A DNA stretch of 36,448 nucleotides from Nemertoderma westbladi (lineage: Eukaryota; Animalia; Xenacoelomorpha): contig JAUCBJ010006491.1 in NCBI GenBank assembly GCA_032718475.1, forward strand, positions 1 to 36,448. Reading direction: 5' to 3'. Under the pieces are notes generated by a model. It ran no database searches and was not told where the DNA came from. It worked only from the letters and a program-made list of their open reading frames with translations. This document shows positions 3,001 to 36,448 of the stretch, in pieces (position 1 is the stretch's first letter; every line of letters starts with the position of its first letter). The translations under genes and the position numbers were made by a program.

Positions 3001-4140
3001 GAAGCATTAACCCATGTCGTGGAACCATTAACCCACGTCGTGGAACCATTAACCCATGTCGTGGAACTATTAACCCATGTCGTGGAACCATTAAACCATG
3101 TCGTGGAACAATTAACCCATGTCGTGGAACCATTAACCCATGTCGTGGAACCATTAACCCATGTCGTGGAACCATTAGCCCATGTCGTGGAACCATTAAC
3201 CCATGTCGTGGAACCATTAACCCATGTCATGGAACCATTAACCCTGTCGTGGAACCATTAACCCATGTCGTGGAACCATTAACCCATGTCATGGAAGCCT
3301 TAACCCATGTCGTTGAACCATTAACCCATGTCGTGGAACCATTAACCCATGTCATGGAACCATTAACCCATGTCGTGGAACCATTAACCCATGTCGTGGA
3401 ACCATTAACCCATGTCATGGAAGCATTAACCCATGTCGTGGAACCATTAACCCATGTCGTGGAACCATTAACCCATGTCGTGGAACCATTAACCCATGTC
3501 GTGGAACCATTAACCCATGTCGTGGAACCATTAACCCATGTCGTGGGACCATTAACCCATGTCGTGGAACCATTAACCCACGTCGTGGAACCATTAACCC
3601 ATGTCGTGGAACTATTAACCCATGTCGTGGAACCATTAACCCATGTCGTGGAACAATTAACCCATGTCGTGGAACCATTAACCCATGTCGTGGAACCATT
3701 AACCCATGTCGTGGAACCATTAGCCCATGTCGTGGAACCATTAACCCATGTCGTGGAACCATTAACCCATGTCGTGGAACCATTAACCCACGTCGTGGAA
3801 CCATTAACCCATGTCGTGGAACTATTAACCCATGTCGTGGAACCATTAACCCATGTCGTGGAACAATTAACCCATGTCGTGGAACCATTAACCCATGTCG
3901 TGGAAGCATTAACCCATGTCGTGGAACCATTAACCCATGTCGTGGAACCATTAACCCATGTCATGGAACCATTAACCCATGTCGTGGAACCATTAACCCA
4001 TGTCGTCGAACCATTAACCCATGTCGTGGAACCATTAACCCATGTCGTGGAACCATTAACCCATGTCATGGAACCATTAACCCATGTCGTGGAACCATTA
4101 ACCCATGTCGTGGAACCATTAACCCATGTCGTGGAACCTT
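1..4140. repeat. 21-bp minisatellite, consensus CCATTAACCCATGTCGTGGAA, about 197 units, running off the left edge of the window
   Basis: The unit is directly visible. Variants are mostly single substitutions, with one 1-nt deletion near 3244. The VVEPLTH, NGSTTWV and MVPRHGL ORFs are translations of this unit. Confidence 0.98.
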
Positions 4141-4719
4141 TGACCGTAATCGATCCAATGATGAGGAGCCACCACGCCACCACTGTCTGGTTCGGTCCCT
4201 TTGTAACTCATGTATTCTTTGATTCTAATAAAAAAACGCTTGATAAATAATAATAATAATGATTACATTATTTACTTTGTATGTTCTCTGTGCCGTTATC
4301 GCGCAAGACCTTTGTTAAATATTAGCAATAAATTGCGCAGTTAATCGGGCCATTCTCATATTCTGTCTAGACCTATATAATCGTGGTCTAGACACTTTAT
4401 ACTACTTTAAGTTCACTACTATCTCTGGTTCGCTGATAACTAAACAAATAAGTTCCTTATTTATAAAGACACGCAAATTGTATTATTGATATACCAAATT
4501 GCACAATGTGTAATATTTAATTTAAGATTATAATAACAATATATAATAGTATTCATTATAATATAATAACCATAACCAACCGAGCAGTTCAAATCTACAT
4601 CGTAGAGTGTCGCGAATTTAGGTCTAATGGTAACCAATTTAGTTCCAATGTAAATTTTTTAAAGAGAACTTAGTTCCAATCGAAGCGACATTAATTCCAA
4701 TCCTCCATGTCAAAACGCG

Positions 4720-5390
4720 AATTAAGTTCCAATGCATGCAAATTTCATCCCAATGCATTCGAATTTTGTTCCAATGCATGCATTCGAATTTAGTTCCAAT
4801 GCATTCGAATTTAGTTCCAATGCATGCGAATTTAGTTCCAATGCATGCGAATTTAGTTCCAATGCATGCGAATTTAGTTCCAATGAATTCGAATTTAGTT
4901 CCAATGCATGCGAATTTAGTTCCAATTCTTTCGAATTTTGTTCCAATGCGTTCGAATTTGGTTCCAATGCATTCGAATTTAGTTCCAATGCATGCGAATT
5001 TAGTTCCAATGCATTCGAATTTAGTTCCAATGCATTCGAATTTAGTTCCAATGCATGCGAATTTAGTTCCAATGCATGCGAATTTATTTCCAATGCGTTC
5101 GAATTTGGTTCCAATGCATTCGAATTTAGTTCCAATGCATTATAATTTAGTTCCAATGCATGTGAATTTATTTCCAATGCATTCGAATTTAGTTTCAATG
5201 CATGCGAATTTAGTTCCAATGCATGCGAATTTAGTTCCAATGCATGCGAATTTAGTTCCAATGCATGCGAATTTAGTTCCAATGCATTCGAATTTAGTTC
5301 CAATGAATTCGAATTTAGTTCCAATGCATGATAATGTAGTTCCAATGCATACGAATTTAGTTCCAATGGGTACGAACTTTGTTCCAATGT
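4720..5390. repeat. 21-bp minisatellite, consensus GAATTTAGTTCCAATGCAT(G/T)C, about 31 units, with degenerate units back to about 4615
   Basis: Directly visible tandem unit; it produces the LELNSHA and NLVPMHA repeat ORFs. Confidence 0.97.
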
Positions 5391-11412: not shown

Positions 11413-12844
11413 ACTACTACTACTAGGATCGGCATGCTGCATTGCAGCTGCATTTTTAAGAATGCGGTGCCGGCTTTTCAACAAAATTGCACCGCCACAA
11501 CTCCCTATCACCCATGACATTTGCTAGATCATCCGCATCTTTAAGGCCAGTGTCCTTTAAGATGCGTCTCAAAAAAGTCATGGGCTGTCCACCATGCTTA
11601 TTCACTCCATGAGGCTGCCAAAGTACAAGATTATGCACTGGCTGGTCCTCACGGCGAAAGCAATGTCCTGCAAAGCGGAGGCAATTTTGTTCTAGTGTCA
11701 AGCTTGGGGGAACCAATGAGACACCTCCAATGTTATATAGTGTCTGGTTGGAGATGTGTGCATTGTACTTGACACAATGAACCCGGCGTAGCATTCTTGT
11801 GAATGTGCCATCCAGAGATTTGGTGTCCTCAGCAGTTAGAGCCCAGCATGGACTCCCGTAGAGGAGTACTGAAACTACTGCTGCTCTAAATAATCGGACC
11901 TTAAGTTTCCGATTAATTCTCGGTGACTTCCAAATCCTGGAAAGCCTATTCAAGGCTGCCCATGCCTTTCCCTTACGTATTCGAAGGTCCTCACCTGACT
12001 TCCGGATCCATGATCCCAGGTAACAGAAGTCGTCCACATGCTCAAGCATACCATCCTTTGAGCTTATGCTCATCCGATCAGAGACTTGCTGAGGACTTTC
12101 AAAGTTAACTGTCAGAATTTTGGTCTTTCTGGAGTTAATAAAAAGACCAACACTAGAAGCAGCATGTTCTAATGAGCTGAGGAGCCGTTGGGCTCCCTCT
12201 AATGATTCTGAGAGTACTCCTAAGTCATCAGCAAAGTCTAGATCAGTTAGGTACTTGGCAGGATTTCCTCGACTTCTGGAGCCAGTAGGTGGAGTTATCA
12301 TCACCCCATCATCATTATAATGATCTAAGGACATGCGTAGAACATAGTCAACCACAATAATGAACAAGAATGGTGCAAGTGTGTCTCCTTGGAGGACGAC
12401 CCATAACACTTCAAATGGTTCTGTGTCACCATCAACAGTAGACACAAATGTTGTCGAACCATCGTATACTGATCTGATTGCTGCAATAATTTCATCGGGA
12501 ATCCCATATAATGAAAGTATGGTGAACATACGTGAGCGAGAGACTGAATCAAAGGCCTTGAAGAAGTCAACAAAGATAACAGCCAGATGCCTGTCTTTCT
12601 TTTTTGATAACTCTTCAATTATCCTTCTAAGTGCCAAAATGGGCTCCATGGTCCCACGACCTTTACGGAACCCATTCTGATTTCCACGGAGCAGTCTCTC
12701 AATGGGATCCCTGATGCGATTTAATAGAATCCTATTGTATAGCTTTGCAGCAATCGAGATCAATGAGATTCCCCGAAAAGAACCATAGAGTGTTAGGTTG
12801 CCCTTCTTGGGAACTGGCACCAACTTATTTGTTTTCATTTCTCC
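11413..12844 (-). mobile_element. 5'-truncated RTE/RTEX-group LINE with a (TAG)n 3' tail and a 12-bp target-site duplication
   Basis: AGGTTAGTTCCT flanks it at 11401-11412 and 12845-12856. A CTACTACTACTACTA tail lies at 11411-11425. It contains the RT ORF. Confidence 0.88.
11456..12838 (-). CDS. Non-LTR reverse transcriptase ORF (N-terminally truncated, no endonuclease), RTE/RTEX-like
   Basis: Motifs LVPVPKKG, FRGISL, QNGFRKGR, FVDFFKAFDSV, QGDTLAPFLF, DFADD, YLGS and the C-terminal LRFAGHCFR are all present in one open frame of 460 aa. Confidence 0.92.
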   Translation of the reverse strand: MKTNKLVPVPKKGNLTLYGSFRGISLISIAAKLYNRILLNRIRDPIERLLRGNQNGFRKGRGTMEPILALRRIIEELSKKKDRHLAVIFVDFFKAFDSVSRSRMFTILSLYGIPDEIIAAIRSVYDGSTTFVSTVDGDTEPFEVLWVVLQGDTLAPFLFIIVVDYVLRMSLDHYNDDGVMITPPTGSRSRGNPAKYLTDLDFADDLGVLSESLEGAQRLLSSLEHAASSVGLFINSRKTKILTVNFESPQQVSDRMSISSKDGMLEHVDDFCYLGSWIRKSGEDLRIRKGKAWAALNRLSRIWKSPRINRKLKVRLFRAAVVSVLLYGSPCWALTAEDTKSLDGTFTRMLRRVHCVKYNAHISNQTLYNIGGVSLVPPSLTLEQNCLRFAGHCFRREDQPVHNLVLWQPHGVNKHGGQPMTFLRRILKDTGLKDADDLANVMGDRELWRCNFVEKPAPHS

Positions 12845-13079
12845 AGGTTAGTTCCTGGTTACGGGGTGTACTGAGGCGAGGTAAGCACCTGGGGCTGTCA
12901 GCCTAACAAATGGTACACCGAGGCCCCCGAACCGACAAGGGAGGCAAGCCTGCGTCCAGCAGTCAGGGGCCAAGGACGTGTTGGTCACATCTTGAAGTGT
13001 CTACATAATGCAGTTGTCGATGCGACCAATCAGGTCGGAAAAGTAAAGGCTGGATACGTCCTGAGGGTACTATACATTA

Positions 13080-16290: not shown

Positions 16291-16736
16291 TGATATAGTT
16301 TCACTGCTTAGGTTTGGTTAGATTTAAATATACGTGCACTGCCCTGCAATCTGTGATGTTCTCATTGTAGTTTTAGGAACGAATTACCGGAAAGAATAGG
16401 TGGACGGCTTTGAAATTTTTAAATCGAAAATTAAGAGTTGAAAATAAGTTTCAGCACCACAGGGTGTTTTCATGTAAATTTGGCGCTATAGAAATATACA
16501 AATTATAATAATACATAAAATTAGTACTTAGTTACTGTAGACTGTATAGTTAATCAGTGTAGCCGTGATGGTTCGTGGTTAATATACACTACCCCTTCAT
16601 TTGCGGTTGTGAAGGTTGTGATTGGAAGTGGTTAAAGACGGCTAAGTACCTACAGTAGGGTTGAGTCCATGGAGAGGTACAGTAAATTGCGGACATACAA
16701 GGTATCAGGTAGTATTTCCAGGTCTATCTTTTACCT

Positions 16737-16808
16737 GAGCCGCTAGCTGAATGGTTAGAGCGTCAGACTTCCAACCGCGGTGGTCACCAGTTCGATCCCA
16801 CCTGGACG
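16737..16808 (+). mobile_element. tRNA-derived SINE head or tRNA pseudogene
   Basis: A box TAGCTGAATGG and B box GTTCGATCC at tRNA spacing. The acceptor and anticodon stems do not pair properly. Confidence 0.6.
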
Positions 16809-17599: not shown

Positions 17600-18003
17600 T
17601 TCTAGAACAATAGAAAATTATTATATACTATTCTAGAACATAAATAAAATAAAAAATATAATGTTCTAGAACATATAGCTAGTTTTTTTTTTAAATTTTG
17701 AAATAGATAGTAAATTTAAAAAAATATCCAATTTGGTAGATAAAATTTTTAATAAATAAATAGTATAAATAATAAATTTTTTTGTATTACTAGCTATTCT
17801 AAATTTGAAAAATAACTAACTATATGTTCTAGAACATTATATCATTTGTATTATTTATGCTCTAGAATAGTGTATAATACTATAATATTAAATAAATAAA
17901 ATAAAAAATAATAATGTTCTAAAACATATAGCTAGTTTTTTTTTAATTTGAAAATACTGTAGCTAGTAAATTTAACAAATAATACAATTTGGTACCGGTA
18001 GAA
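17600..18003. repeat. AT-rich foldback repeat with alternating ~95-bp arms rich in TTCTAGAA (copy A)
   Basis: About 17620-17715 is the reverse complement of about 17786-17878, and the arm recurs at about 17890-17970. Confidence 0.75.
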
Positions 18004-18039: not shown

Positions 18040-19903
18040 GATATAACCCATGGGTTACCCGTTGGGTCTACGGATTGGATGTAACCCACGGGTTACCCGT
18101 TGAGTTTACGGGTTGGATATAACCCATGGGTTACCCGTTGGGTCTACGGATTGGATGTAACCCATGGGTTACCCGTTGAGTTTACGAGTTGGATATAACC
18201 CATGGGTTACCCGTTGGGTCTACGGGTTGGATGTATCCCATGGGTTACCCGTTGAGTTTACGGGTTGGATATAACCCATGGGTTACCCGTTGGGTCTACG
18301 GGTTGGATGTAACCCATGGGTTACCCGTTGGGTCTACGGATTGGATGTAACCCACGGGTTACCCGTTGAGTTTACGGGTTGGATATAACCCATGGGTTAC
18401 CCGTTGGGTCTACGGATTGGATGTAACCCATGGGTTACCCGTTGAGTTTACGAGTTGGATATAACCCATGGGTTACCCGTTGGGTCTACTGGTTGGATGT
18501 AACTCACGGGTTACCCGTTGAGTTTACGGGTTGGATATAACCCATGGGTTACCCGTTGGGTCTACGGATTGGATGTAACCCACGGGTTACCCGTTGAGTT
18601 TACGGGTTGGATATAACCCATGGGTTACCCGTTGGGTCTACGGATTGGATGTAACCCATGGGTTACCCGTTGAGTTTACGAGTTGGATATAACCCATGGG
18701 TTACCCGTTGGGTCTACGGGTTGGATGTATCCCATGGGTTACCCGTTGAGTTTACGGGTTGGATATAACCCATGGGTTACCCGTTGGGTCTACGGGTTGG
18801 ATGTAACCCATGGGTTACCCGTTGGGTCTACGGGTTGGATGTAACCCATGGGTTACCCATTGGGTCTACGGGTTGGATGTATCCCATGGGTTACCCGTTG
18901 AGTTTACGGGTTGGATATAACCCATGGGTTACCCGTTGGGTCTACGGGTTGGATGTAACCCATGGGTTACCCGTTGGGTCTACGGGTTGGATGTAACCCA
19001 TGGGTTACCCATTGGGTCTACGGGTTGGATGTAACCCATGGGTTACCCGTTGGGTCTACGGATTGGATGTAATGTAACCCATGGGTTACCCGTTGAGTTT
19101 ACGGGTTGGATATAACCCATGGGTTACCCGTTGGGTCTACGGGTTGGATGTAACCCACGGGTTACCCGTTGGGTATACTGCTGTACTGGTTGGATGTAAC
19201 CCATGGGTTACCCGTTGGGTATACTGCTGTACTGGTTGGATGTAACCCATGGGTTACCCGTTGGGTATATGGGTTGGATGTAACCCATGGGTTACCCGTT
19301 GGGTCTACGAGTTGGATGTAACCCATGGGTTACCCGTTGGGTCTACGGGTTGGATGTAACCCATGGGTTACCCTTTGGGTCTACGGGTTGGATGTAACCC
19401 ATGGGTTACCCGTTGGGTCTACGGGTTGGATGTAACCCATGGGTTACCCGTTGGGTCTACGGATTGGATGTAATGTAACCCATGGGTTACCCGTTGAGTT
19501 TACGGGTTGGAATTAACCCATGGGTTACCCGTTGGGTCTACGGGTTGGATGTAACCCACGGGTTACCCGTTGGGTATACTGCTGTACTGGTTGGATGTAA
19601 CCCATGGGTTACCCGTTGGGTATACTGCTGTACTGGTTGGATGTAACCCATGGGTTACCCGTTGGGTATATGGGTTGGATGTAACCCATGGGTTACCCGT
19701 TGGGTCTACGAGTTGGATGTAACCCATGGGTTACCCGTTGGGTCTACGGGTTGGATGTAACCCATGGGTTACCCTTTGGGTCTACGGGTTGGATGTAACC
19801 CATGGGTTACCCGTTGGGTCTACGGGTTGGATATAACCCATGGGTTACCCGTTGGGTCTACGGGTTGGATGTAACCCACGGGTTACCCGTTGGGTCTACG
19901 GGT
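18040..19903. repeat. 38-bp satellite, consensus TAACCCATGGGTTACCCGTTGGGTCTACGGGTTGGATG, about 49 units
   Basis: 38-bp periodicity is directly visible. Consensus units contain the perfect 16-bp palindrome GTAACCCATGGGTTAC. Confidence 0.97.
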
Positions 19904-20170
19904 TCCATCTATCCTTTATGGGATTTCTACCGCGGTTCCTGGAACCGACGTTCGCCAACGGAGGCCACACGACCTACGGCAGTGCCGTTCATTTGTTTAT
20001 TGTAACTCAAAGGATATTATTAAAACATGTTGGTCGAACTATTTCTGTTTCTATTATTGTTGCTTATTATTTGAGAATATTATATTGGTTTGTTACAGAA
20101 ACACCTACTGCTACGGGCTACAGTACAGTTTGTTTATTTCTGGAACTTGAACTTGAACTCTTTAGGTTCG

Positions 20171-21097
20171 TTACGGCTTGCATTTAAGTTTCATCTCTAA
20201 GGTTTTACTCAGCAGTTCCCATTCATTGGGGTGAGTTCCACCAATCCACCATCCATTACTGTCGTTAAACTTCTTGTTATCCAGGACCGTTAGATCGTAT
20301 GTTTCATTATCCAATACACCGGTAGCAGCGGTCCCAGCAGTACCTGAATGGGTGTAACTAGAAATCTTTAGCAAATTATCAGGATAATTACCCACAGTAA
20401 AGTCGCTGTAGACTCTCGTCGAGTTACCCAAGTCGACCTTTACGTAACAATCCTTCCCGTATGTCAGCTGATAGATATTTTGCACTCCTAGGAAGTACGA
20501 TCCGTTGGGATCTCCGAATCCGTAGTAGTAATCAGAACTAATTCCATCCCAGAAGTTGTTGATGCGACTGTAGAATATAATCCAGCCTCCGTCGCATCTG
20601 AGTTGATTATTGATTATTTCATCTCCCTTGGAGGTGTATAGAATATATATGGGATCAGCTTTATCGACGGTATATTGGGTCTCGGATTGTGTAGCTTTAT
20701 AGCATATATTGGAATGAGCGTAGGAATCACAATCTACCTCATTGCATTCAATAAACGAGTGATAAAACTTGTCCTCAATGGAGATTGTTGTTGAAGTGAT
20801 TGTGGAGATTGTCGTTGAAGTAATTGTAGTCATGGTGATTAATCCAGCTTCTCCTATTGAGCTGATTGTGGTCGTCACGTCTGCTCCCGATGGTAACAGC
20901 ATCAGTATTATTACTGTTACTAGAGCAACTAGAAGAATTCCTATTGCCGCGGCTAAAAGTTTCATTAGATTATCGCAATCATCCAGCAGCATTCGGCACA
21001 GCCAGTTCGATTGGTTGGCGTTGTTGTTCGGCTGAGGGGCGATCGGCAGCTGAACTTCGTCCACTTCGATTTCTTCAACAGCTGGTAGACCTGACAT
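20171..21097 (-). CDS. Type II membrane fibrinogen-related-domain (FReD) protein, paralog A, 308 aa, uninterrupted CDS
   Basis: First ATG at 21097. Acidic N-tail, TM segment LLAAAIGILLVALVTVIILMLL, Thr/Ser stalk, then FReD-type motifs CDGGWIIFYSR, YYYGFGDPNGSYFLGVQNIYQLT, VKVDL, YSDFTV, LKI..Y..GTAG, GWW and EMKL. AATAAA lies about 35 nt after the stop. Confidence 0.85.
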   Translation of the reverse strand: MSGLPAVEEIEVDEVQLPIAPQPNNNANQSNWLCRMLLDDCDNLMKLLAAAIGILLVALVTVIILMLLPSGADVTTTISSIGEAGLITMTTITSTTISTITSTTISIEDKFYHSFIECNEVDCDSYAHSNICYKATQSETQYTVDKADPIYILYTSKGDEIINNQLRCDGGWIIFYSRINNFWDGISSDYYYGFGDPNGSYFLGVQNIYQLTYGKDCYVKVDLGNSTRVYSDFTVGNYPDNLLKISSYTHSGTAGTAATGVLDNETYDLTVLDNKKFNDSNGWWIGGTHPNEWELLSKTLEMKLKCKP

Positions 21098-22382
21098 TGT
21101 TCGAATGTGAAGCAAGACTTGTACAAAATAATTATTTAATAAATTGTATTCGTAACGGTAAGAATTCCTGACTTCTGATATTTTTCGTCTTTTGCAAATT
21201 TGCAATCAATATATTTATCACTATAATATATTTACACCAAAATTTGAAAATTTCATAAGCCCTTATGTAATGCCAGAGTTTTTTTAAACAAAAAGTTGTC
21301 CTTCTAACAGTTGGATTGTAGTAAGAAGTAGATGGTATTTTAAATTTTGAGTCAGCTACTACTTTTTACGAGCTACAGGTAGGAAAAAAATTAATTGAAA
21401 AAATACATATTTTAATCCTAATCAAATATAAAATAAATTTTCCAGGAAAACTTACCGAGTCATGGTAGATAAAATATATGTAATAATTGTTTACTAGCTA
21501 TAGTTTATTTTATTTATAAAGTAGAAAACTAAACATTCAACAATAAAAAACATTCTAAAATATCTTGATTGTATGGAACATGTCAAAATAAATGTACAAT
21601 AATATAATAAAAGCCAGGAAAAACAATTTAACTTAAATTAATTTATGTTCCGTAACAAAACACTGGCATTATTTTCCTAAATTGGGTGTAAACATACGGT
21701 AGTGAAACCATAAATATAAAAATAAAAATGCAAACCTGTATTATTTTACAACGGAACTGCAACTAATAAAAGATTCTAGAACAGGGAATTATTATGGTAA
21801 CAAATAAATTTATCATGAATAGGTAGACCAAAAGGATTGTAGCGGAATTTTTAAGTATTTTGTTAAACGGCTAGGAATTGGAATTGGAATTATTTTATTG
21901 ACATCAAAATATGAAAACAATACGAAAGTAAATGTGGTATGGAGTATAGACAAACACCGCTCCAGAGTTCTCCAGTGTTCTAGAATATCGAAAAAAAATG
22001 AAGAGAGCTGCTGAGTTAACGCTGGTTAAAGTAAGCAATAATAACTAACGCACGTAGGCCTTTGTCTTGATTGAGATATGACAACAGACACGTCATTGTA
22101 ATTTGAAATCCTGGCCTCTCATTGGCTAGTAACTGGCTGAGCTATAATAATTAAATTGATGAATGTGAATGAAAATGAAATTAAGATTGGTTCGCTTATG
22201 AAGTTATCGGTATTATTAATAGTTAATATTGTTAATTGTTAATAACGGAAATATTGTTGTAAATTCGTTAAAGTGCATTGGTAGTAGGTATCCATAATTG
22301 GTATTCATATTACGTGTTATTCATACTTGGTATTCATATTACGTGTTATTCATAATTGCACAGAATTCGACGGCTTTTGACA

Positions 22383-22490: not shown

Positions 22491-22497
22491 TAGTTAA

Positions 22498-23065
22498 TGT
22501 GACGGGATCCAGATGGGATCCCGGTTTATCCGGTTGTCAGTTCACGCGTCCCCGCCGTGTGTGAAGAGTAAAAGAGTTTCGGATGTTCGACGTGTATAAT
22601 GTTTGGGTATATGGATGTAGATACGGTATAATGGTGGACAAAGTTATTGCATATGGAAGGCGGGAGACGGTAATTGAAATCCCGGTACTTCCCTAACTAA
22701 ACTATTGTAAGCTACAGTAACACCAGTAACTAGCACTGAGATAACTGAACTGATATGATTACAGGTTACTGGTTATATTGCACGGTGGCCTTATTGCTAC
22801 TCAATCGATGCCTTTCCCCCCTCTGATTGGCTAATACCCCTGTTGGCACCCTTTGCCCCCCTCTGAAGTGCTTCCCTTCGCCCTTGCTGTTCTCTCTCTG
22901 TTAGGGGGTTTGGCCCCTGACCCTTATTGTGTGTGTCTCCTTTGGGGCCTATTGTCCCCGTTTACTGGGCTGACACGAGGTTGATTGGTAATCAACCTCG
23001 TGCTCCCAATATTGCTTTATGGCTCACTTTATGGGGTTTGGTGAGGCGGAATTGATTCGCTAACA
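22498..23065 (-). repeat. 3' LTR (568 bp)
   Basis: Matches 29438-30005 except for two substitutions found by eye (22661 C/T and 23029 T/C). Confidence 0.96.
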
Positions 23066-23074
23066 CTCCCCCCC
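23066..23074 (-). other. Polypurine tract GGGGGGGAG
   Basis: Immediately precedes the 3' LTR on the minus strand. Confidence 0.85.
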
Positions 23075-23499
23075 ATGCTATCTTCCCGGTGAGAAGATAG
23101 CATCAACCACTAAGTGCGCTTCAATTCCGCTGGAACTCGATCTATTATCGGGTGTGGGGTGGAGTTATTTTCTTGGAGTCGGCTTTCCAGGCCGCTCCCT
23201 ATGGGTATGATCTCACTACCCTCTGGCGTCTCGTGTCGGGCCGATCGTGCGCTTCTCTCACACAATTTTTGTTTCCCCGACACTCTCACCGCTCTAACTC
23301 CGCTCTCTGACTCAACTCGCTCTTGCCCTCTCCCCACACCTGAATCGCACACCTCTCTCTCGCCAACAGCTCCTTTCACTATCTCCTCTCTACTCCCTGC
23401 CACTCTTTAAGGCCCTGACCTCTAATGCTACCCCTGTGCTATCATACTATCTACCTACTATTCACTTGCTAACTATCTAACTCTCTTACTAACTTTAAC

Positions 23500-24130
23500 T
23501 ATCTCTCTAAGCCTACTAACTTTAACTCTAACTCTTCTACTACGTGGTGCTTAGGGTGCCCACAACCCTCTGCTACTACCTCCATCTACGTGGCGCTTGC
23601 GGTGCCCACAACCACTCTACTACTAACTCTAACTAAAACCCTCTATCTACGTGGCGCTTGTGGTGCCCACAACCACTCTACTATCTACCCTCTACTACTC
23701 TACTACCTGGCACCCTATGTGCCCTCTCTACTACTCTACTCTGTGGCACCATATGTGCCCGTCTCTACTACTCTAACACTCTAACTCTACTACCTGGCAC
23801 CCTATGTGCCCTCTCTACTACTCTACTCTCTGGCACCCTATGTGCCCTCTCTACTACTCTACTCTATCTACTTCAACTCTTCTACTACGTGGCGCTTGCG
23901 GTGCCCACAACCACTCTCTGCTACTACTTTCTACGTGGCGCTTCCGGTGCCCACAACCACTCTCTCCTACTACTTGTGGCATGACAATATGCCACACTCC
24001 CTTACCCCGCCGCCTTCTAACTTAACTCCCGGTACTACGTACCCTCTACTCCCGTGGTATGTTTATACCACACTCCCTATACTCCGCCGCCTTCTAACTT
24101 CTCTACTTACTATCCTTTACTACTTCTAAC
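23500..24130. repeat. Interspersed short repeats in the 3' non-coding region of the LTR element
   Basis: Five copies of CTACGTGGCGCTT..GGTGCCCACAACC and four of TGGCACC(C/A)TATGTGCCC plus one variant, separated by CTA/CTCT-rich linkers. Confidence 0.85.
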
Positions 24131-24264: not shown

Positions 24265-27156
24265 CTAACTAGGGCGATTCTTCCAACAGGCACTCTCCCA
24301 CTGCTGCTCTTGTAGGTCCTGTAGGATTCGCCGCACTCTCTTCGCCAATTCCATCTCACCAGGAATTGGTTCTCCCTCTTCTGCCACCCTGAAATCGGGT
24401 CTCTCCGCCGCCTTCTTAACTAGCTCATCTCCTGGCATCAAAATGCCACCTCCCTCCTTGTTGTCTCCCGCCGGCAGAATGAATAGAAAGTGAAAGAACA
24501 GGCAGAACAGTCGGTACAATAGTAGTCCTATCCCTTTCCGTCCTGCCTTCCTTCTCGACTCCCCCCTTGTTGGTATGCCTCCAACCCGGACCTGCGTCTC
24601 TTCCGGACACTCCTCTGGACACTCCTCTAGACACTCCTTCCGACACTCCTCCGGGCACTCCCCCGGAGTGTTGTCCTCCGGACACCTCGCTGTCCGCTCC
24701 GCTCCATCTCCATACCGATGCTTGCTGGGAAACCTACTCTCCTCTGCCCACTTTCTTACCGTCACCTCCCTATCTGGCTCTACTATCTCCTGTTTCTCCT
24801 CTTCGTCCTCTGCGCCTGTGGTGCCTGGTAACATGCACCCTGATGTCTCTGTCACACTGCATGGGATCTTAGTTTTAACTGGGCCGCTAAGCATCCACCC
24901 GAACGGCGTGAGGATCGCCGTCGGATCCCGCTGCCTGTCTTCGCCGAAGACCGTCTTCGTTCTCTCGTGGGCCGTCGGGCAGTCCATCCCTACTATAATG
25001 GACACCTTCCTAACGTCCACCTTTGGTATTGAGAAATCGATACTACTATCGATACTATATTGTTCGACCTCAATGTTGGTTGGTCGCCTGGCATTGATGT
25101 TTATCGATTCTATGACGTGGATGGGGTCGATCGTCGCCCCATAGTCGTATCCCGGTGCAATCGCTGCTATCCTGCACCGCCCCGCCCTCGTCTCCAGGAC
25201 CTCATCTTTACTCGAGACGGTAGTCACCGCCATTCTATTTGGCCTTGTCTTTAGCCCTATCTCTTCGGCCACCCAGTTCTCCACCAGCGTGAAGGCTGCT
25301 CCGCTGTCAACCAGCATTAATGTCGTTACTGATCGACCGCCCTCTCCTGATATCTTTACTGGTACTACCCCGAGTAGTACTTTTCTCTTCTTCTTCTCTT
25401 CTGTCGTGCTTGTGGCCATTGCCTGGCCTCCAGTCTCGGACTCTCTAACTGCTGTTTCTCTACACTCTCCGGATCTGTGTCCTTCTACCACACATCGATG
25501 ACATAGTCCGTTCGCGTCTGTGTAGGCTATATGATCTTGTTTGGGCAACGCTTGCCAGTGCTTACAACTCCTGGTCTTATGTGTTCCATCCCGATGTAAT
25601 TGACATTCGAATCCTGGATCATAGCGTTCCCTGTATAGTCCCTCACGTATCGCGCCTAGGTTTATATGTACCGATTTAGTGTTTTGGTTGTCTGTATTCG
25701 GCCTACTGGGTACATTGGGATTATGTTTATTTATGGTGTTATTTTCTTTCTGTCCCCGCCACGGTGTGGCCCTACTACCAGCTAACTGTGGACTGGTAGT
25801 CCCCTGTGTGGCCGCATGTGGTAGTGACTGTCCCACTCCCGAGAATGGGTCTATCGGATTATATTCGGGTTCAGGCCAGTTGTATTCGGTCTTAGGTGCC
25901 TTCCCCAAACTATCCTCGCTATAGACTGGGTCTGTTATTAATTCGGCTTCATAGTTGAGGAAGCTCGACATCTCTTCTAAGCCCGGTTCCGCACCCTTCT
26001 TCTCCCGTGTGGAGAAGGCTATCTTCCTCCACTTCCTTCGTAACCAGATCGGCAGTGCCTGCGCTATCGTGGTGATGTTGTTAGACGCGTTGAGTTCGTA
26101 TGGTGCGTCTAGCGTCTTTAACACGATTAACGCCTTCTCGACCTTGTTTGCAAAGGTCCTTATGCTAACGGGATTCTCCTGTAGGCCATCCGATGTTATG
26201 CCTCTCAGGGTTTGCCGGATGATCTTGGCCGGGTGCCCGTATTCCCTATCTAGCGCCCGCCATGCTGTCGTGAAGCCGCCCTCGATGCCCTGGTATTGCC
26301 TCACGATGTCGTATGCTGGGCCTCCTGTATATACTTGCAGATATTTTAGGCACTCCGCCTGCGTCAAGTTCTTACTTAATATTTCGTTACTATACATACG
26401 CCGAAACTGTAGGTATTCTTCCGGCCTACTCCCATCGAATTTAAATGGTTCCACGGGTGGTAACTCGATCCTAGTTTTTAACGCATCGATCAATGTGGCC
26501 ATTCCCATCGCTTGCGCTTCTAATGGGTTCGATGGATGTTGTATAGTTTCTCCTGTTGGGTGCGGTCCGTCCGTCCTATCTGTTGTTGTCCTTTGCGTCG
26601 GATATATCATTGGGGGTAACGGCCCCCTCCATATTTCCGTGTCGCATGATCTGTTCTCGTCCAAGGGGTTCGATGTTCTCGCTCCTATTGGGGTATATTG
26701 TTGATATTGTGATGGGGGAATGTCACCCTGTCCCCCTCCCATCGGTATGTTTGGTACTGGGGTTGATGTTAATATATTGGGGCCCATACATCTATCTGCA
26801 ATAATTCCCCCCTCCCCTGGATATATGTTGTGTCCCTGGAAATTATAGTCATGCTGCTGTACCGGTACCGATATAGGCCTATTCACTTCTTGCCTACCTA
26901 CCGGTATGTACTCCGCGACTTCCGGGTTTAATCCCGTCGTCCGCGCTACCCTATCTCTCCCAGCATGGCCTATAATAGTATGTGCAGTAAGGCCTACAGT
27001 ATGTCCTGCAGTCTGCATGTGCCCTTCCGAATCGAAGTTTATTCTTCTCGAATCTCGAATCTCCCCGCGACTACCGTACTCTCGATCGGCAGCTATATCA
27101 CGTCGGGAAGTTTCTCTTCGATCCCCACTCCTGTTCTCTTCTTCGTATCGGTACAT
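24265..27156 (-). CDS. BEL/Pao Gag core (DUF1759-like capsid, Cys-His knuckles) plus aspartic protease, ending in a non-pol tail
   Basis: FDGSRPEEYLQF..LKYLQVYTGGPAYDIV..AWRALDREYG; knuckles CQLHRDGTHKTRSC and CHRCVVEGHRSGEC; protease LVDSGA; BEL-typical IIVGMD..TPFGWMLSGP. Confidence 0.9.
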   Translation of the reverse strand: MYRYEEENRSGDRRETSRRDIAADREYGSRGEIRDSRRINFDSEGHMQTAGHTVGLTAHTIIGHAGRDRVARTTGLNPEVAEYIPVGRQEVNRPISVPVQQHDYNFQGHNIYPGEGGIIADRCMGPNILTSTPVPNIPMGGGQGDIPPSQYQQYTPIGARTSNPLDENRSCDTEIWRGPLPPMIYPTQRTTTDRTDGPHPTGETIQHPSNPLEAQAMGMATLIDALKTRIELPPVEPFKFDGSRPEEYLQFRRMYSNEILSKNLTQAECLKYLQVYTGGPAYDIVRQYQGIEGGFTTAWRALDREYGHPAKIIRQTLRGITSDGLQENPVSIRTFANKVEKALIVLKTLDAPYELNASNNITTIAQALPIWLRRKWRKIAFSTREKKGAEPGLEEMSSFLNYEAELITDPVYSEDSLGKAPKTEYNWPEPEYNPIDPFSGVGQSLPHAATQGTTSPQLAGSRATPWRGQKENNTINKHNPNVPSRPNTDNQNTKSVHINLGAIREGLYRERYDPGFECQLHRDGTHKTRSCKHWQALPKQDHIAYTDANGLCHRCVVEGHRSGECRETAVRESETGGQAMATSTTEEKKKRKVLLGVVPVKISGEGGRSVTTLMLVDSGAAFTLVENWVAEEIGLKTRPNRMAVTTVSSKDEVLETRAGRCRIAAIAPGYDYGATIDPIHVIESININARRPTNIEVEQYSIDSSIDFSIPKVDVRKVSIIVGMDCPTAHERTKTVFGEDRQRDPTAILTPFGWMLSGPVKTKIPCSVTETSGCMLPGTTGAEDEEEKQEIVEPDREVTVRKWAEESRFPSKHRYGDGAERTARCPEDNTPGECPEECRKECLEECPEECPEETQVRVGGIPTRGESRRKAGRKGIGLLLYRLFCLFFHFLFILPAGDNKEGGGILMPGDELVKKAAERPDFRVAEEGEPIPGEMELAKRVRRILQDLQEQQWESACWKNRPS

Positions 27157-27321
27157 CCTGTACCCCTCTCGTGGCCTGCGGTGTGTTTCTCCGGGGCGAC
27201 GGCAATCTCCCGAAGTTCGACCCCACTGACTCTCCGTCTCAATCTCTACTACTGACGGCTCGCTATCCGTCCTTGCTCTCCTGTTGCTCCTAGCAACGAT
27301 TCTTCTACTCTCTCCACTTCT

Positions 27322-29362
27322 TCAATCTTCGACCTCTCTATTAAACTCTACTAATCTACTTCTATCTTCGACCTCTCTATTAAACTCTACTAATCTACTT
27401 CTATCTTTGACCTCTCTATTAAACTCTACTAATCTTCTCTCTTCTGACTGGGCTCGACGTTCCGTCGCCCGCCCTCTCGCGACGTCAACCTGTCTCTCTC
27501 TGCTCGATCGCACGCCGCTGGGGATACTCGCAATCCCCCTATTATTCTCCGTCGCCGGGTGTTGCGGTTTACCTAATTCGGCCCGCGCATTATCCGCCGA
27601 CGCCTGTGGGACACTCCCTGCCCCCCCTCTCTCGCTACTAATCTCTCGTGGTGGGGCGCCCGTAGCCCCCCCCCACCCGCCACTTCTAACTTCACTATCT
27701 CTCACTACACTTCTGCGTCCCTCTTGTCGGACATTTTCTACCCCCCTTCTCTCGCCACTGATCCTCCGTGGTGGGGCGCCCGTAGCCCCCCCCCCCCCAC
27801 TCGCCACATCTAACTTCACTATCTCTTACTACCCTTCTATACCCCTCTCTAGTCGACACACTATCTCTACTACGGCTGGGTCTATTCACCCCCGCCTCTC
27901 TCTCTACTACTGCGAGGCCTACCAGGCCCACCTCGGGTTGGCTCAACCCCGCTACCTCCTGCCTACCAACTACGTGGCCTACCAGGCCACCGTCGGGTTG
28001 GCTCAACCCCGCCACTTCCTGCCTACTAACTACGTGGTCTACCAGGCCGCCGTCTGCCGGGCTATACACGTCTGACACGCTCATATTAATAGCACCATTC
28101 CCAATATTATTTGTTAAATCAATTAAATTATTAGAATTTGAAACGGGATTATTATTTAAATTATTTAAGTTAGAATTATTATTATTTTCAAAATTTAAAT
28201 TGCTATTCGAATTATTTGAATTATTTTGATTATCCTGAATATTTGAATTAATATTATTATTTGAATTTAAACTTAAATTATTACTACCGGGTAAAATATT
28301 TCCTGTAATAAAGGGATTAGGGTTATTTACTACGGTACTAGTAATACCAATATTTCCTAACGCACTACTACTACTCCCCTCACCCGTACGGTTACTGTAC
28401 ATACTGTACGTGTACCGCACGCTCTGTTCTCTTGCCTCACGCTCTTCGCGTTCACTCTCTTGCTCCTTCCTTCCCCTCAGTCGCCACTCTAATTCTTCCA
28501 TTTTTAATTTATATGCCATGCGTTCACTCTCTCGCACCCGTCTTTCTTTTGCGGAGGATGTAGCAGACTTATCGGTTGCGACGGACTCCCGCCGCCCCTC
28601 CGTCCTACTAACTTTCCCCCGCTTTCCGGGGTTCTCGCTGACCGACGAGGCCGAATCCTCGGAGCTAACCTCGGATTCGCCCTCGTGCGGTCCCGCCCAA
28701 CCCACTAACTTAACTTCCCTGGCATCGACTAAGTATGGCCCTATGTACACTACACCAGGCCCCATACCCCTACGTTCCCATAGCCCAAACAGTTCGAAGG
28801 CAACCCCTCTCGCTCTCTCCTCGGCCAGTTCTCCCTGCCCAGAACGCACTAGGTAATCAAAGTATCTGTTCGACTCACCTAGTCGTCTCCTCAACTTCAC
28901 CTGGTCTATCTCAGCCCCTCCTCTAGCTTCCTTCAGTTGTTCCCGGGTCGCGGCGTAGGCTCGTCGGAGCCGGACGACCCCGACGTCCTCGTCGTCGACA
29001 TCTCCTCTCTCCCTCCGGGTTCGGCGTCGTACCGTCGGCTCCACTGTTGCCGTTCCGGTGGGCCGTCCGTCGCCCTCGGCCTCTCGCTGGCCGGCGACAT
29101 CGGCACATCGACCGCCGTCGTGTGTCGACTCGTCTTCCTCTCCTCCCGACTCGTCTCCTCTACTCGACTCGCTCTCTCGCTGTAGACGACCCCCCACATC
29201 TTGGTTCGCCGGGTTGCTCGTTGGCGTGGCGTCAACCTGCGTCGACGTGGTCGGCGTAGCATCGACCGGCGTCGTGGGTTCGTATCGTCTCGCCGTGGCC
29301 TCGCGGATCGTTAGATCGTCGTCCGGGGTCCGCGGCGGTGTCGTTCCTCTCTCTCGACTCAT
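27322..29362 (-). pseudogene. N-terminal low-complexity part of the same Gag ORF, separated from the core by a homopolymer frameshift (about 27786-27798) and one TGA (27322-27324)
   Basis: Track ORFs 27695-29395 and 27322-27819 join if G13 is read as G12. After the TGA, 55 stop-free codons lead in frame to the ATG at 27156. Confidence 0.75.
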
Positions 29363-29437
29363 CTTCGTCTTTAGTGATTGGTGGCTGGTAGTCACTGAGT
29401 TTTAGTTAGCTAGGGCGGCAGCTCTGAGTTCAATTAC

Positions 29438-30005
29438 TGTGACGGGATCCAGATGGGATCCCGGTTTATCCGGTTGTCAGTTCACGCGTCCCCGCCGTGT
29501 GTGAAGAGTAAAAGAGTTTCGGATGTTCGACGTGTATAATGTTTGGGTATATGGATGTAGATACGGTATAATGGTGGACAAAGTTATTGCATATGGAAGG
29601 TGGGAGACGGTAATTGAAATCCCGGTACTTCCCTAACTAAACTATTGTAAGCTACAGTAACACCAGTAACTAGCACTGAGATAACTGAACTGATATGATT
29701 ACAGGTTACTGGTTATATTGCACGGTGGCCTTATTGCTACTCAATCGATGCCTTTCCCCCCTCTGATTGGCTAATACCCCTGTTGGCACCCTTTGCCCCC
29801 CTCTGAAGTGCTTCCCTTCGCCCTTGCTGTTCTCTCTCTGTTAGGGGGTTTGGCCCCTGACCCTTATTGTGTGTGTCTCCTTTGGGGCCTATTGTCCCCG
29901 TTTACTGGGCTGACACGAGGTTGATTGGTAATCAACCTCGTGCTCCCAATATTGCTTTATGGCTCACTCTATGGGGTTTGGTGAGGCGGAATTGATTCGC
30001 TAACA
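29438..30005 (-). repeat. 5' LTR (568 bp)
   Basis: Reads TGTTAGCG...CCGTCACA on the minus strand, upstream of the gag ORF. Confidence 0.96.
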
Positions 30006-30269
30006 GTTAATCATTGTAGCCGTGATGGTTCATGTTTAATATACAATACCCCTTCATTTGCGGTTGTGAAGGTTGTGATTGGAAGTGGTTAAAGACGGCT
30101 AAGTACCCACAGTAGGGTTGAGTCCATGAAGAGGTACAGTAAATTGCGGATATACAAGGTATCAGGTAGTATTTCCAGGTCTATCTTTTACCTGAGGTGA
30201 TGATTTAAAAATCTGAAATCTGAAAAGCTGATGTTTAAAAATAGTCACTCGAAAATTTCAAATTCTCTT

Positions 30270-30729: not shown

Positions 30730-31280
30730 GAGTTCTAGAACAATAGAAATGTATTAAATACTATTCTAGAACATAAATAAAATAAAAAATATAATGTTCT
30801 AGAACATATAGCTAGTTTTTTTTAATTTTAAAATAGCTAGTAAATTTAAAAAAATATCCAATTTGGTAGATAAAATTTTTAATAAATAAATAGTATAAAT
30901 AATATTTTTTTTTGTATTACTAGCTATTCTAAATTTGAAACATAACTAGCTATATGTTCTAGAACATTATATTATTTGTATTATTTATGCTCTAGAATAG
31001 TGTATAATACATATAATATTAAATAAATAAAATAAAAAATAATAATGTTCTAAAACATATAGCTAGTTTTTTTTTAATTTGAAAATAGCTAGTAAATTTA
31101 ACAAATAATACAATATGGTACCGGTAGAAATTTTTTTAATAATAATATAAATAAATACATTTTTTTTACTAGCTATTTTAAATTTAAAAATTTACTAGCT
31201 ATATGTTCTAGAACAATAATTATTTTATTTTATTTTTGTTCTAGAATAGTGTATATTATATATTTTTTATTCTAGAATGG
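30730..31280. repeat. AT-rich TTCTAGAA foldback repeat (copy B, four alternating arms)
   Basis: Paralogous to 17600-18003, with an extra inverted arm at about 31166-31258. Confidence 0.75.
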
Positions 31281-32431: not shown

Positions 32432-34503
32432 TTACCCGTTGGGTCTACTGGTTGGATGTAACCCACGGGTTACCCGTTGGGTCTACTGGTTGGATGTAAC
32501 CCATGGGTTACCCGTTGGGTCTACGGGTTGGATGTAAAACATGGGTTACCCGTTGGGTCTACGGGTTGGATCTGGATATAACCCATATGGGTTACCCGTT
32601 ATGTCTACGGGTTGGATGTAAAACATGGGTTACCCGTTGGGTCTACGGGTTGGATGTAACCCATATGGGTTACCCGTTATGTCTACGGGTTGGATATAAC
32701 CCACGGGTTACCCGTTGGGTCTACTGGTTGGATGTAACCCACGGGTTACCCGTTGGGTCTACTGGTTGGATGTAACCCATGGGTTACCCGTTGGGTCTAC
32801 GGGTTGTATGTAACCCACGGGTTACCCGTTGGGTCTACTGGTTGGATGTAACCCACGGGTTACCCGTTGGGTCTACTGGTTGGATGTAACCCATGGGTTA
32901 CCCGTTGGGTCTACGGGTTGGATATAAAACATGGGTTACCCGTTGGGTCTACTGGTTGGATGTAACCCACGGGTTACCCGTTGGGTCTACTGGTTGGATG
33001 TAACCCATGGGTTACCCGTTGGGTCTACTGGTTGGATGTAACCCATGGGTTACCCGTTGGGTCTACGGATTGGATGTAAAACATGGGTTACCCTTTGGGT
33101 CTACTGGTTGGATGTAACCCACGGGTTACCCGTTGGGTCTACTGGTTGGATGTAACCCATGGGTTACCCGTTGGGTCTACTGGTTGGATGTAACCCACGG
33201 GTTACCCGTTGGGTCTACGGATTGGATGTAAAACATGGGTTACCCGTTGAGTCTGGGTTGGATGTAACCCATGGGTTACCCGTTGGGTCTACGGGTTGGA
33301 TGTAACCCACGGGTTACCCGTTGGGTCTACGGGTTGGATGTAACCCATGGGTTACCCGTTGGGTCTACGGGTTGGATGTAACCCACGGGTTACCCGTTGG
33401 GTCTACGGGTTGGATGTAACCCATGGGTTACCCGTTGGGTCTACTGGTTGGATGTAACCCATGGGTTACCCGTTGGGTCTACTGGTTGGATGTAACCCAC
33501 GGGTTACCCGTTGGGTCTACGGATTGGATGTAAAACATGGGTTTCCCGTTGAGTCTGGGTTGGATGTAACCCATGGGTTACCCGTTGGGTCTACTGGTTG
33601 GATGTAACCCACGGGTTACCCGTTGGGTCTACTGGTTGGATGTAACCCACGGGTTACCCGTTGGGTCTACGGATTGGATGTAAAACATGGGTTACCCGTT
33701 GAGTCTGGGTTGGATGTAACCCACGGGTTACCCGTTGGGTCTACTGGTTGGATGTAACCCATGGGTTACCCGTTGGGTCTACTGGTTGGATGTAACCCAT
33801 GGGTTACCCGTTGGGTCTACTGGTTGGATGTAACCCATGGGTTACCCGTTGGGTCTACTGGTTGGATGTAACCCACGGGTTACCCGTTGGGTCTACGGAT
33901 TGGATGTAAAACATGGGTTACCCGTTGAGTCTGGGTTGGATGTAAAACATGGGTTACCCGTTTGGTCTACTGGTTGGATGTAACCCACGGGTTACCCGTT
34001 GGGTCTACTGGTTGGATGTAACCCACGGGTTACCCGTTGGGTCTACTGATTGGATGTAAAACATGGGTTACCCGTTGGGTCTACTGGTTGGATGTAACCC
34101 ACGGGTTACCCGTTGGGTCTACTGGTTGGATGTAACCCATGGGTTACCCGTTGGGTCTACTGGTTGGATGTAACCCACGGGTTACCCGTTGAGTCTACGG
34201 ATTGGATGTAAAACATGGGTTACCCGTTGGGTCTACTGGTTGGATGTAACCCACGGGTTACCCGTTGGGTCTACGGATTGGATGTAAAACATGGGTTACC
34301 CGTTGGGTCTACTGGTTGGATGTAACCCACGGGTTACCCGTTGGGTCTACGGGTTGGATGTAACCACGGGTTACCCGTTGGGTCTGGGTTGGATGTATCC
34401 CATGGGTTACCCGTTGGGTCTACTAGTTGGATGTAACCCACGGGTTACCCGTTGGGTCTACGGGTTGGATGTAACCCATGGGTTACCCATTGGGTCTACG
34501 GGT
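32432..34503. repeat. 38-bp palindromic satellite, copy B, about 54 units
   Basis: Same consensus as 18040-19903, with its own common variants (CTACTGG, TAAAACATGG, 2-nt deletions). Confidence 0.97.
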
Positions 34504-34762
34504 TCCATCTATCCTTTATGGGATTCCTACCGTGGTTCCTGGAACCGACTTCCCAACGGAGGCCACACGACCTACGGCAGTGCCGTTCATTTGTTTATTG
34601 TAACTCAGAGGATATTATTAAAACATGTTGGTCGAACTATTTCTGTTTCTATTATTGTTGCTTACTATTAGAGAATATTATATTGGTTTGTTACAGAAAC
34701 ACCTACTGCTACGGGCTACGGTACAGTTTGTTTATTTCTGGAACTTGAACTCTTTAGGTTCG

Positions 34763-35680
34763 TTACGGCTTGCATTTTAGTTTCATCTCTAATGTTTTCC
34801 CCTGCAGTTTCCAATCCTTTGGATGAGTTCCACCATTCCACCATCCATTACTGTTGTTATACTCCATGTTATCCAGGACCGTTAGATCGTATTCCCTATT
34901 ATCCAATACACCGGTAGAAGCGGTCCCAGCAGTACGTGGATTGGTATAATTTGCTATCTTTAGATTAAAACGAGGATACCCCAAAGTAAAGTCGCTGTAA
35001 ATTCTCGTCCAGTTACCCAAGTCGACCTTTACGTAACAATCCTTCCCCTTTGTCAGCAGAAAGATATTTTGCACTCCTAGGAAGTAAGATCCGTTGGGAT
35101 CTCCGAATCCGTTGTAGTAATAATAACTACCTGTACCTCCATCCCAGCCGTTAATGTCGTTGTTGATGCGACTGTAGAATATAATCCAGCCGCCGTCGCA
35201 TCTGAGTTGATTGTTGGAGGTGGATAGAACCCCAATGGGAGCAGCTCCACCGACGGTATATTGGGTCTCGGATTGTGTAGCTTTATAGCATATATCAGAA
35301 TGAGCGTAGGAATCACAATCTACCTCATTGCATTCAATAAACGAGTGATAAAACTTGTCCTCTATGGAGGTTGTTGTTGAAGTGATTGTGGAGATTGTCG
35401 TTGAAGTAATTGTAGTCATGGTGATTAATCCAGCTTCCCCTATTGAGCTGATTGTGGTCGTCACGTCTGCTCCCGATGGTAACAGCATCAGTATTATTAC
35501 TGTTACTAGAGCAAGAAGAATTCCTATTGCCGCGGCTAAAAGTTTCATTAGATTATCGCAATCATCCAGCAGCATTCGGCACAGCCAGTTCGATTGGTTG
35601 GCGTTGTTGTTCGGCTGAGAGGCGATCGGCAGCTGAACTTCGTCCACTTCGATTTCTTCAACAGCTGGTAGACCTGGCAT
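34763..35680 (-). CDS. Type II membrane FReD protein, paralog B, 305 aa, uninterrupted CDS
   Basis: ATG at 35680. Same architecture and motifs as 20171-21097, and all indels relative to paralog A preserve the frame. Confidence 0.85.
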   Translation of the reverse strand: MPGLPAVEEIEVDEVQLPIASQPNNNANQSNWLCRMLLDDCDNLMKLLAAAIGILLALVTVIILMLLPSGADVTTTISSIGEAGLITMTTITSTTISTITSTTTSIEDKFYHSFIECNEVDCDSYAHSDICYKATQSETQYTVGGAAPIGVLSTSNNQLRCDGGWIIFYSRINNDINGWDGGTGSYYYYNGFGDPNGSYFLGVQNIFLLTKGKDCYVKVDLGNWTRIYSDFTLGYPRFNLKIANYTNPRTAGTASTGVLDNREYDLTVLDNMEYNNSNGWWNGGTHPKDWKLQGKTLEMKLKCKP

Positions 35681-36448
35681 TGTTCGAATGTGAAGCAAGA
35701 CTTGTACAAATAATTATTTAATAAATTGTATTCGTAACGGTAAGAATTCCTGACTTCTGAGATCTTTCGTCTTTTGCAAATTTGCAATCAATATTTTTAT
35801 CACTATAATATATTTACACCAAAATTTGACAATTTCATAAGCCCTTATGTAATGCCAGAGTTTTTTTTAAACAAAATGTTGTCCTTCTAACAGTTGGATT
35901 GTAGTAAGAAGTAGATGGTATTTTAAATTTTGAGTCAGCTACTAATTTTTACGAGCTAGGAAAAAAATTATAGTTGAAAAATAAATATTTTAATCGTAAT
36001 CAAATATAAAATAAATTTTCCAGGAAAACTTACCGAGTCATGGTAGATAAAATATATGTAATAATTGTTTACTAGCTATAGTTTATTTTATTTATAAAGT
36101 AGAAAACTAAACATTCAATAATAAAAAACATTCCAAAATGTCTTTATTGTATGGAACATGTCAAAATAAATGTACAATAATATAATAAAAGCCAGGAAAA
36201 ACAATTTAACTTAAATTAATTTATGTTCCGTAGCAAAACACTGGCATTATTTTCCTAAATTTGGTGTAAACATACGGTAGTGATACCATAAATATAAAAA
36301 TAAAAATGATAACCTGTATTATTTTACAACGGGACTGCAACTAATAAAAGATTCTAGAACAGGGAATTATTATGGTAACAAATAAATTTATCATGAATAG
36401 GTAAACCAAAAGGATTGTAGCGGAATTTTTAAGTATTTTGTTAAAAAG

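Follow-up and report, generated by a model that had tools for sequence, protein, structure and literature searches.

A pol-less BEL/Pao retrotransposon whose primer-binding site covaries with a site in its own LTR and which is likely to be primed by its own RNA

Structure and classification of the element

The window, i.e. the whole stretch of 36,448 nucleotides of Nemertoderma westbladi DNA that was analysed, contains a 7.5-kb LTR element on its minus strand (30005–22498; Table 1). Both LTRs are 568 bp long with TG...CA ends, and the 5' and 3' copies differ at two positions. Together with the 5-bp target-site duplication and the purine run at the 3' LTR, these features mark a recent insertion made by an integrase. 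The insertion target is a host repeat (30005–30196), a 96% identical and insertion-free copy of which is located at 16548–16739.

The product of ORF2 matches the Pfam domains DUF1759 (1e-10) and Asp_protease_2 (6e-6). A search against 1.84 billion proteins gave 2431 matches at E ≤0.001, those listed being 22–36% identical, and six long matches (among 8 scanned of the 150 listed) are complete BEL/Pao polyproteins with Peptidase_A17, DUF5641 and integrase zinc domains. The gag and protease support the assignment of the element to BEL/Pao, and the initial annotation, which had called it BEL/Pao-type, agrees with the DUF1759 domain, the aspartyl protease and the polyprotein homologs. In ORF1, the N-terminal 180 residues are kept across the family (39–69% identity), and an Asn-rich tract is present. 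Short tandem repeats of 36–124 bp occur at 23300–24100, in the pol-less region, and at 27320–28054, between ORF1 and ORF2.

A domain search detected no reverse transcriptase (RT), RNase H or integrase in the window copy, which hence lacks the gypsy-order pol (RT, RNase H, integrase) expected of Belpaoviridae, and its ORF2 diverges from RT-bearing relatives soon past the protease. Protease relatives in the same-species assembly show 64–80% identity. In seven out of ten such loci that were fetched, a frame extends past the protease in the direction of a BEL-type RT, with stops or shifts in some, and the proteases of the RT-bearing relatives are 69–80% identical to that of the window copy. The absence of pol from the window copy and its presence in relatives from the same species identify the element as a non-autonomous deletion derivative, which would borrow its RT. 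It should be noted that in this fragmented assembly the LTR-leader junction loci described below are physically unlinked to RT genes. In a quick tree spanning the protease to the RT N-terminus, which holds only BEL rows, has no outgroup and does not clearly cluster the label, the family occupies a long branch (1.92). A genome index searched with the LTR returned no other species, apart from one 26-nt match at chance level, and the same search with the RT start likewise returned none, a blank in this index not being equal to absence.

The surroundings of the element are rich in repeats. Arrays of a 21-bp tandem repeat at 1–4145 (197 copies) and 4717–5389 (32 copies) have long open frames on both strands. 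A 38-bp tandem array is present in two copies (18040–19904, 48 units; 32432–34504, 55 units), each adjoining a frame with a fibrinogen-C domain (20171–21205 and 34763–35713); these combined units look like a local duplication, and the LTR element sits between them. A separate RT frame with DUF6451 (11456–12847, minus strand) probably belongs to a non-LTR element, and A/T-rich inverted-repeat elements were observed at 17600–17956 and 30733–31277.

Table 1. Features of the element and of its predicted RNA (window coordinates)
Feature	Position	Strand	Remarks
Target-site duplication, upstream copy	30006..30010	-	5 bp (TTAAC)
5' LTR	29438..30005	-	568 bp, TG...CA
TATA-like box	29713..29719	-	homologous place in 8/8 junction loci
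Two overlapping initiator-like motifs	29683..29693	-	26 and 31 nt from TATA; predicted transcription start 29691 or 29686
Outer helix, 5' strand	29631..29664	-	predicted to pair with leader
Candidate self-primer site (site A)	29610..29618	-	PBS complement, covaries in 8/8
Stem right after primer site, 5' arm	29599..29609	-	predicted fold; similar arms in relatives
Stem right after primer site, 3' arm	29487..29496	-	predicted fold
Site C, in U5	29477..29485	-	weak alternative partner of site A
Hairpin 6 nt before LTR end	29444..29462	-	stem kept, loop varies in family
Non-tRNA primer-binding site (PBS)	29429..29437	-	from +1 after LTR
Outer helix, leader strand	29387..29415	-	
ORF1	27695..29362	-	555 aa from first ATG; no Pfam match
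ORF2	24265..27321	-	stop to stop, 1018 aa; BEL/Pao gag (DUF1759), Cys/His knuckles, aspartyl protease
Polypurine tract	23066..23074	-	adjoins 3' LTR
3' LTR	22498..23065	-	568 bp
Target-site duplication, downstream copy	22493..22497	-	5 bp (TTAAC)

Covariation between the primer-binding site and the LTR

The sequence GTAATTGAA (29437–29429) directly abuts the end of the 5' LTR, and its exact complement begins at LTR position 388 (29618–29610). As read from the sequence, of the next three positions in the direction of the LTR end two pair and one does not, i.e. 11 of 12. The initial annotation had reported both the 9-nt and the extended match and had placed the site 387 nt into the LTR, and these observations hold. 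For the window copy alone, the chance of such a match in 5000 dinucleotide shuffles is 0.004 for the 9-mer and 0.015 for any 9-mer beginning near the junction, which is suggestive but short of decisive. No tRNA genes were found within the window.

A search of the same-species assembly with the leader and the ORF1 N-terminus yielded 14 loci. These comprise seven distinct 5' LTR–leader–ORF1 junctions that are long enough upstream, three repeats of those that were left out (L016 = L014, L017 = L012, L019 = L015), two junctions too short upstream, one locus without an LTR end and one rearranged copy. With the window copy, the set consists of eight junctions, all from one species and 45–71% alike over the region. 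L024 and L025 have junctions with a GT start, and their DNA (113 and 82 nt) ends before site A. L013 was rejected as a 5' junction (run of 6), its LTR being located downstream of the ORF1 start. Parts of L013 (1–478) and L023 (727–810, both in element orientation) are small derivatives in which the ORF1 start is directly followed by a partial LTR.

In all eight junctions, the longest Watson-Crick run from +1 falls at one and the same LTR position, with lengths of 9, 9, 10, 9, 7, 7, 10 and 10 nt (only 7 nt in L020 and L021) against 4–6 nt for the second-best runs. Site A is located 172–245 nt before the LTR end, just ahead of a conserved stem. The letters of the PBS vary, for example GTAATAAAG in L012, GTGATAGAAG in L014 and GTGAATAATT in L023, each complemented by its own LTR, and there are seven different PBS sequences among the eight junctions. 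Positions 1, 2 and 4 alone are invariant, whereas six positions (3 and 5–9) vary on both sides. In total, 72 out of 80 positions pair, a score equalled by 2 of the 40,320 PBS-to-site permutations (mean 48); the members are related, and this ratio should not be read as a probability for independent samples. Control LTR ends, 12 distinct ones from the family that run into host DNA (some with little LTR sequence), gave runs of 2–6 nt. We conclude that the pairing between the PBS and site A is a real feature that is under constraint. The initial annotation had named covariation in related elements as a check and had allowed that the 9-mer match could be due to chance; the covarying relatives exclude the latter. 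DNA contigs of runs X1 and X2 carry other PBS letters at 29433 and 29431, of a type expected to match site A variants in solo LTRs; these PBS letters are unlinked and were left out of the covariation count.

A TGG trinucleotide is absent from the first 15 nt after the LTR in all eight junctions, in line with the earlier observation that none abuts the LTR in the window copy. The PBS, being variable and without a nearby TGG, differs from the 18-nt PBS for tRNA-Arg or tRNA-Gly that characterizes Belpaoviridae. Since seven different PBS sequences cannot all be matched by one unchanging host RNA, tRNA priming is very unlikely for this family.

Promoter motifs and predicted RNA folds

A TATA-like box is located 58–98 nt upstream of site A in all eight LTRs, and in each of them an initiator-like A follows 26–32 nt after it (background of 0.046 per 8-nt window). 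TATA-initiator spacing of this size is usual for animal core promoters. In the window copy, site A is preceded by the TATA (29719) at a distance of about 100 nt and by the initiator-like motif (29693) at about 75 nt, and no poly(A) signal was found before site A. From these motifs we infer that transcription starts near 29691 (or 29686). The primer site is then probably internal, 39–82 nt from the RNA 5' end and unlike that of Tf1, and the 5' fragment of the RNA ending at site A would have a predicted length of 39–82 nt. The initial annotation had proposed a start at 29618–29620, with the first RNA nucleotides as the primer. This part of it is probably wrong, given the position of the TATA and initiator motifs and the pairing of the leader with sequence upstream of site A. 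With the promoter motifs placing the start near 29691, a start site far from 29618 would not refute self-priming as such. Counting from the initiator (29691), the first 11 nt pair with the PBS, two G:U pairs included; they were considered as a primer and rejected, as relatives show no covariation at this place.

The sequence between the initiator and site A is predicted to pair with the leader past the PBS, forming an outer helix. In the window copy, this duplex has an energy of -34.1 kcal/mol, and one of 300 shuffles is as low. The pairing is better than in shuffles in four of the eight junctions (1, 2, 0 and 7 of 300) but not in the other four (L012, 54; L020, 257; L022, 111; L023, 41 of 300), and cognate strands pair better than swapped ones (593 of 40,320 permutations). 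We regard the predicted leader pairing as moderate support for a transcript that includes the stretch from the initiator to site A. The helix between site A and the PBS is short and A/T-rich. When the RNA is folded from the predicted start, this helix reaches a probability of 0.7–1.0 in only three of the eight members; the window copy has about 0.1 and four members are near 0. Its cost amounts to 1.7–9.2 kcal/mol; chaperoning by Gag could offset a cost of 2–9 kcal/mol. Site C is weaker than the PBS as a partner of site A in 8/8 (cognate matching, 1593 of 40,320 permutations). DNA contigs of runs X2, X3 and X4 join 29501–29505 to 29595–29606, which points to high-depth subfamilies with a shorter or different loop between the arms of the stem that follows site A.

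Intron-split primer sites in other BEL/Pao loci

Metagenome contigs were scanned with 21 BEL polyproteins, resulting in 78 loci, of which 59 were analysed for the sequence upstream of the coding region and 19 were excluded for being too short or tandem. In 20 of the 59 loci, which are unrelated BEL/Pao elements, the sequence after ACA pairs over at least 10 nt with a GT-AG splice junction, compared with 0–6 loci in eight null runs; at least 11 nt pair in 17 of the 59 (0–3 in eight null runs). Some of the 20 loci are near-copies (L059/L060, L067/L070), and the LTR ends of the metagenome loci are set by a direct repeat in a few only. In L067/L070, the top splice-junction match is possibly spurious, and a 10-nt match sits at their LTR end. 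L042 and L068 have a contiguous 11-nt match, and L039 and L101 have a TGG-type site. Among loci L036–L104, GT-AG introns of 75–259 nt lie inside BEL/Pao LTRs, and their junction matches the PBS. ATTAAA follows the intron-built primer site in seven out of ten inspected loci.

The intron-bearing loci resemble the window family in having a non-tRNA PBS that is matched by LTR-derived RNA; it lies 0–4 nt from the LTR end, and the match spans 10–15 nt. However, the match arises only once the GT-AG intron of 75–259 nt is removed, whereas it is contiguous in the window family. A splice-built primer was rejected for the latter: in none of the eight members does a GT/GC-AG junction beat the contiguous run, with two ties. 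Our opinion is evenly balanced on a wider proposal, namely that a large part of BEL/Pao is tRNA-free and uses a cap-proximal primer from its own RNA with an internal 3' end; many lineages would splice an LTR intron to build it, and the window family would be intron-less, with primer and PBS drifting freely together, one being a copy of the other in every round.

Proposed priming mechanism and alternative explanations

We consider it highly probable that the family is self-primed in some form. Its most plausible version, which we regard as likely, is that this recent, RT-less BEL/Pao element, with a PBS that pairs with a covarying site of its own LTR, would prime with a piece of its own RNA released by cleavage, the primer site being internal. 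In all readable members, the 7–10 nt after the 5' LTR complement one fixed LTR site. The initiator near 29691, about 75 nt before site A, would be the transcription start, and the RNA is predicted to fold back in its 5' part, with site A on the PBS and the preceding sequence on the leader. On the model of Tf1, a complete relative would provide an RT whose RNase H might then cut just after site A (29610/29609), which would leave a 3' end facing PBS +1. RT would extend this end through U5 and the rest of R. Pairing from exactly +1 supports priming, because the 3' end of a primer must sit there for the LTR end to be copied. The primer end may later be copied into the plus strand, and this would keep the PBS and site A matched while they drift. 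A primer of 39–82 nt would demand that plus-strand copying end at the matched part or that its product be trimmed back to it.

The covariation fits equally well, in 8/8, with a strict Tf1 geometry, in which the RNA begins at 29618 or slightly upstream and its first 9–11 nt serve as the primer. When the window copy is folded from site A, the helix predominates (0.9), and the matched 7–10 nt, bounded by a bulge of 1–2 nt, suit a short primer. Yet in such a fold the helix is favoured in only 4/8, the TATA and initiator (26–32 nt apart) precede site A by tens of nucleotides in every member, and the partner sequence of the leader lies upstream of site A, so that we find this geometry unlikely. The initial annotation, which had argued for Tf1-like self-priming, is accordingly supported by the covariation and the missing TGG in preferring self-priming to tRNA priming, but not, in view of the promoter motifs and the leader pairing, in its Tf1 geometry. 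Covariation demonstrates pairing rather than priming, and the helix might instead be structural or regulatory (packaging, a dimer contact or a translation switch), something else being the primer. Helices of comparable kind occur in retroviral leaders, a precedent for this explanation, and the weak alternative partner at site C is suggestive of a switch. We nevertheless hold it to be doubtful: there is no sign of another primer site, the helix starts exactly at +1 in all eight junctions, and the PBS match is perfect while the other helices are loose.

Site A is present in both LTRs, and it would be geometrically possible for an RNA 3' end at site A of the 3' LTR to anneal uncut to the PBS, or for a second RNA molecule to be the primer. 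This appears quite improbable, as there is no poly(A) signal before site A, the outer helix requires no second molecule, and the ATTAAA downstream of the primer site in seven out of ten inspected intron-bearing loci suggests that the RNA runs past it. Priming by a tRNA or tRNA fragment, with an incidental LTR match, would conform to the ICTV description of Belpaoviridae as tRNA-primed (PMC8742986) and has a parallel in the TGG-type sites of L039 and L101. We assign it only a very slight chance, given the seven PBS variants in eight junctions, each fitting its own LTR, and the absence of TGG near the LTR end.

If priming with own RNA is true for BEL/Pao, tRNA-free initiation extends to a third LTR superfamily, and with the primer site inside the RNA the geometry would differ from that of Tf1, raising the question of how the site of an RNA-RNA cut would be chosen by a BEL RNase H. 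Such elements would be missed, or given wrong boundaries, by annotation tools built to require a tRNA PBS, and the natural variants with matched letters are ready cognate and non-cognate pairs for testing. Self-priming in BEL/Pao, if true, would also speak to the order in which self-priming and tRNA priming arose, a question raised in the available text of PMC3601003.

Comparison with known systems

Our literature search, with most subscription journals, Repbase reports and supplements outside its coverage, found no report of self-priming in BEL/Pao, and to our knowledge textbook descriptions do not include priming of BEL/Pao with its own RNA. The terms PBS, primer, tRNA and intron are absent from PMC3118150, and the available part of PMC8220671 has generic mentions only. 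The ICTV profile of Belpaoviridae (genus Semotivirus) describes host-tRNA priming with an 18-nt PBS for tRNA-Arg or tRNA-Gly and terms the replication of this family "poorly understood" (PMC8742986). The window element shares with Belpaoviridae the Gag, the protease, TG...CA LTRs inside the 0.2–1.2 kb range, the polypurine tract and the animal host, and its relatives continue into a BEL-type RT. In contrast, an 18-nt tRNA PBS is absent from the window family, and the window copy is without RT, RNase H or integrase.

For the plant TAR lineage of Ty1/copia (Houba, Osr-1) and for the Tcn1 clade, self-priming has been predicted from LTR-PBS complementarity in the self-priming passages of PMC6317226, suggesting that it arose or persisted in more than one superfamily. 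The elements treated in those passages are copia or gypsy elements of plants, and no BEL/Pao element is named there (PMC6317226).

As in the Tf1/sushi group, the PBS of the window family abuts the 5' LTR and complements its own LTR-derived RNA without a tRNA, and extra helices are predicted beside the primer duplex. This group of Ty3/gypsy chromoviruses includes Tf1 and Tf2 of Schizosaccharomyces pombe, Tj1, Tosmo and Tcn1, whereas the window family has a BEL/Pao gag and protease. Its PBS match of 7–10 nt, freely varying in sequence, is also unlike Tf1/sushi. According to the available text of PMC7175516, Tf1 RNA's initial 11 bases anneal to the PBS, and RNase H cleaves between bases 11 and 12. 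The primer site of Tf1 is the RNA 5' end, while that of the window family is predicted to lie 39–82 nt inside the RNA. Tf1 RNA adopts a three-duplex "pretzel" fold, both flanking duplexes of which use LTR sequence downstream of the primer, as described in the available part of 10.1101/2022.12.06.519325. The predicted fold of the window family has a hairpin before the PBS, but its leader pairs upstream of the primer site, and with the Tf1 duplexes lying downstream the two folds would differ. In these terms the window element would work like Tf1 but stands outside the Tf1/sushi group, as a BEL/Pao element that lacks the tRNA character of its family.
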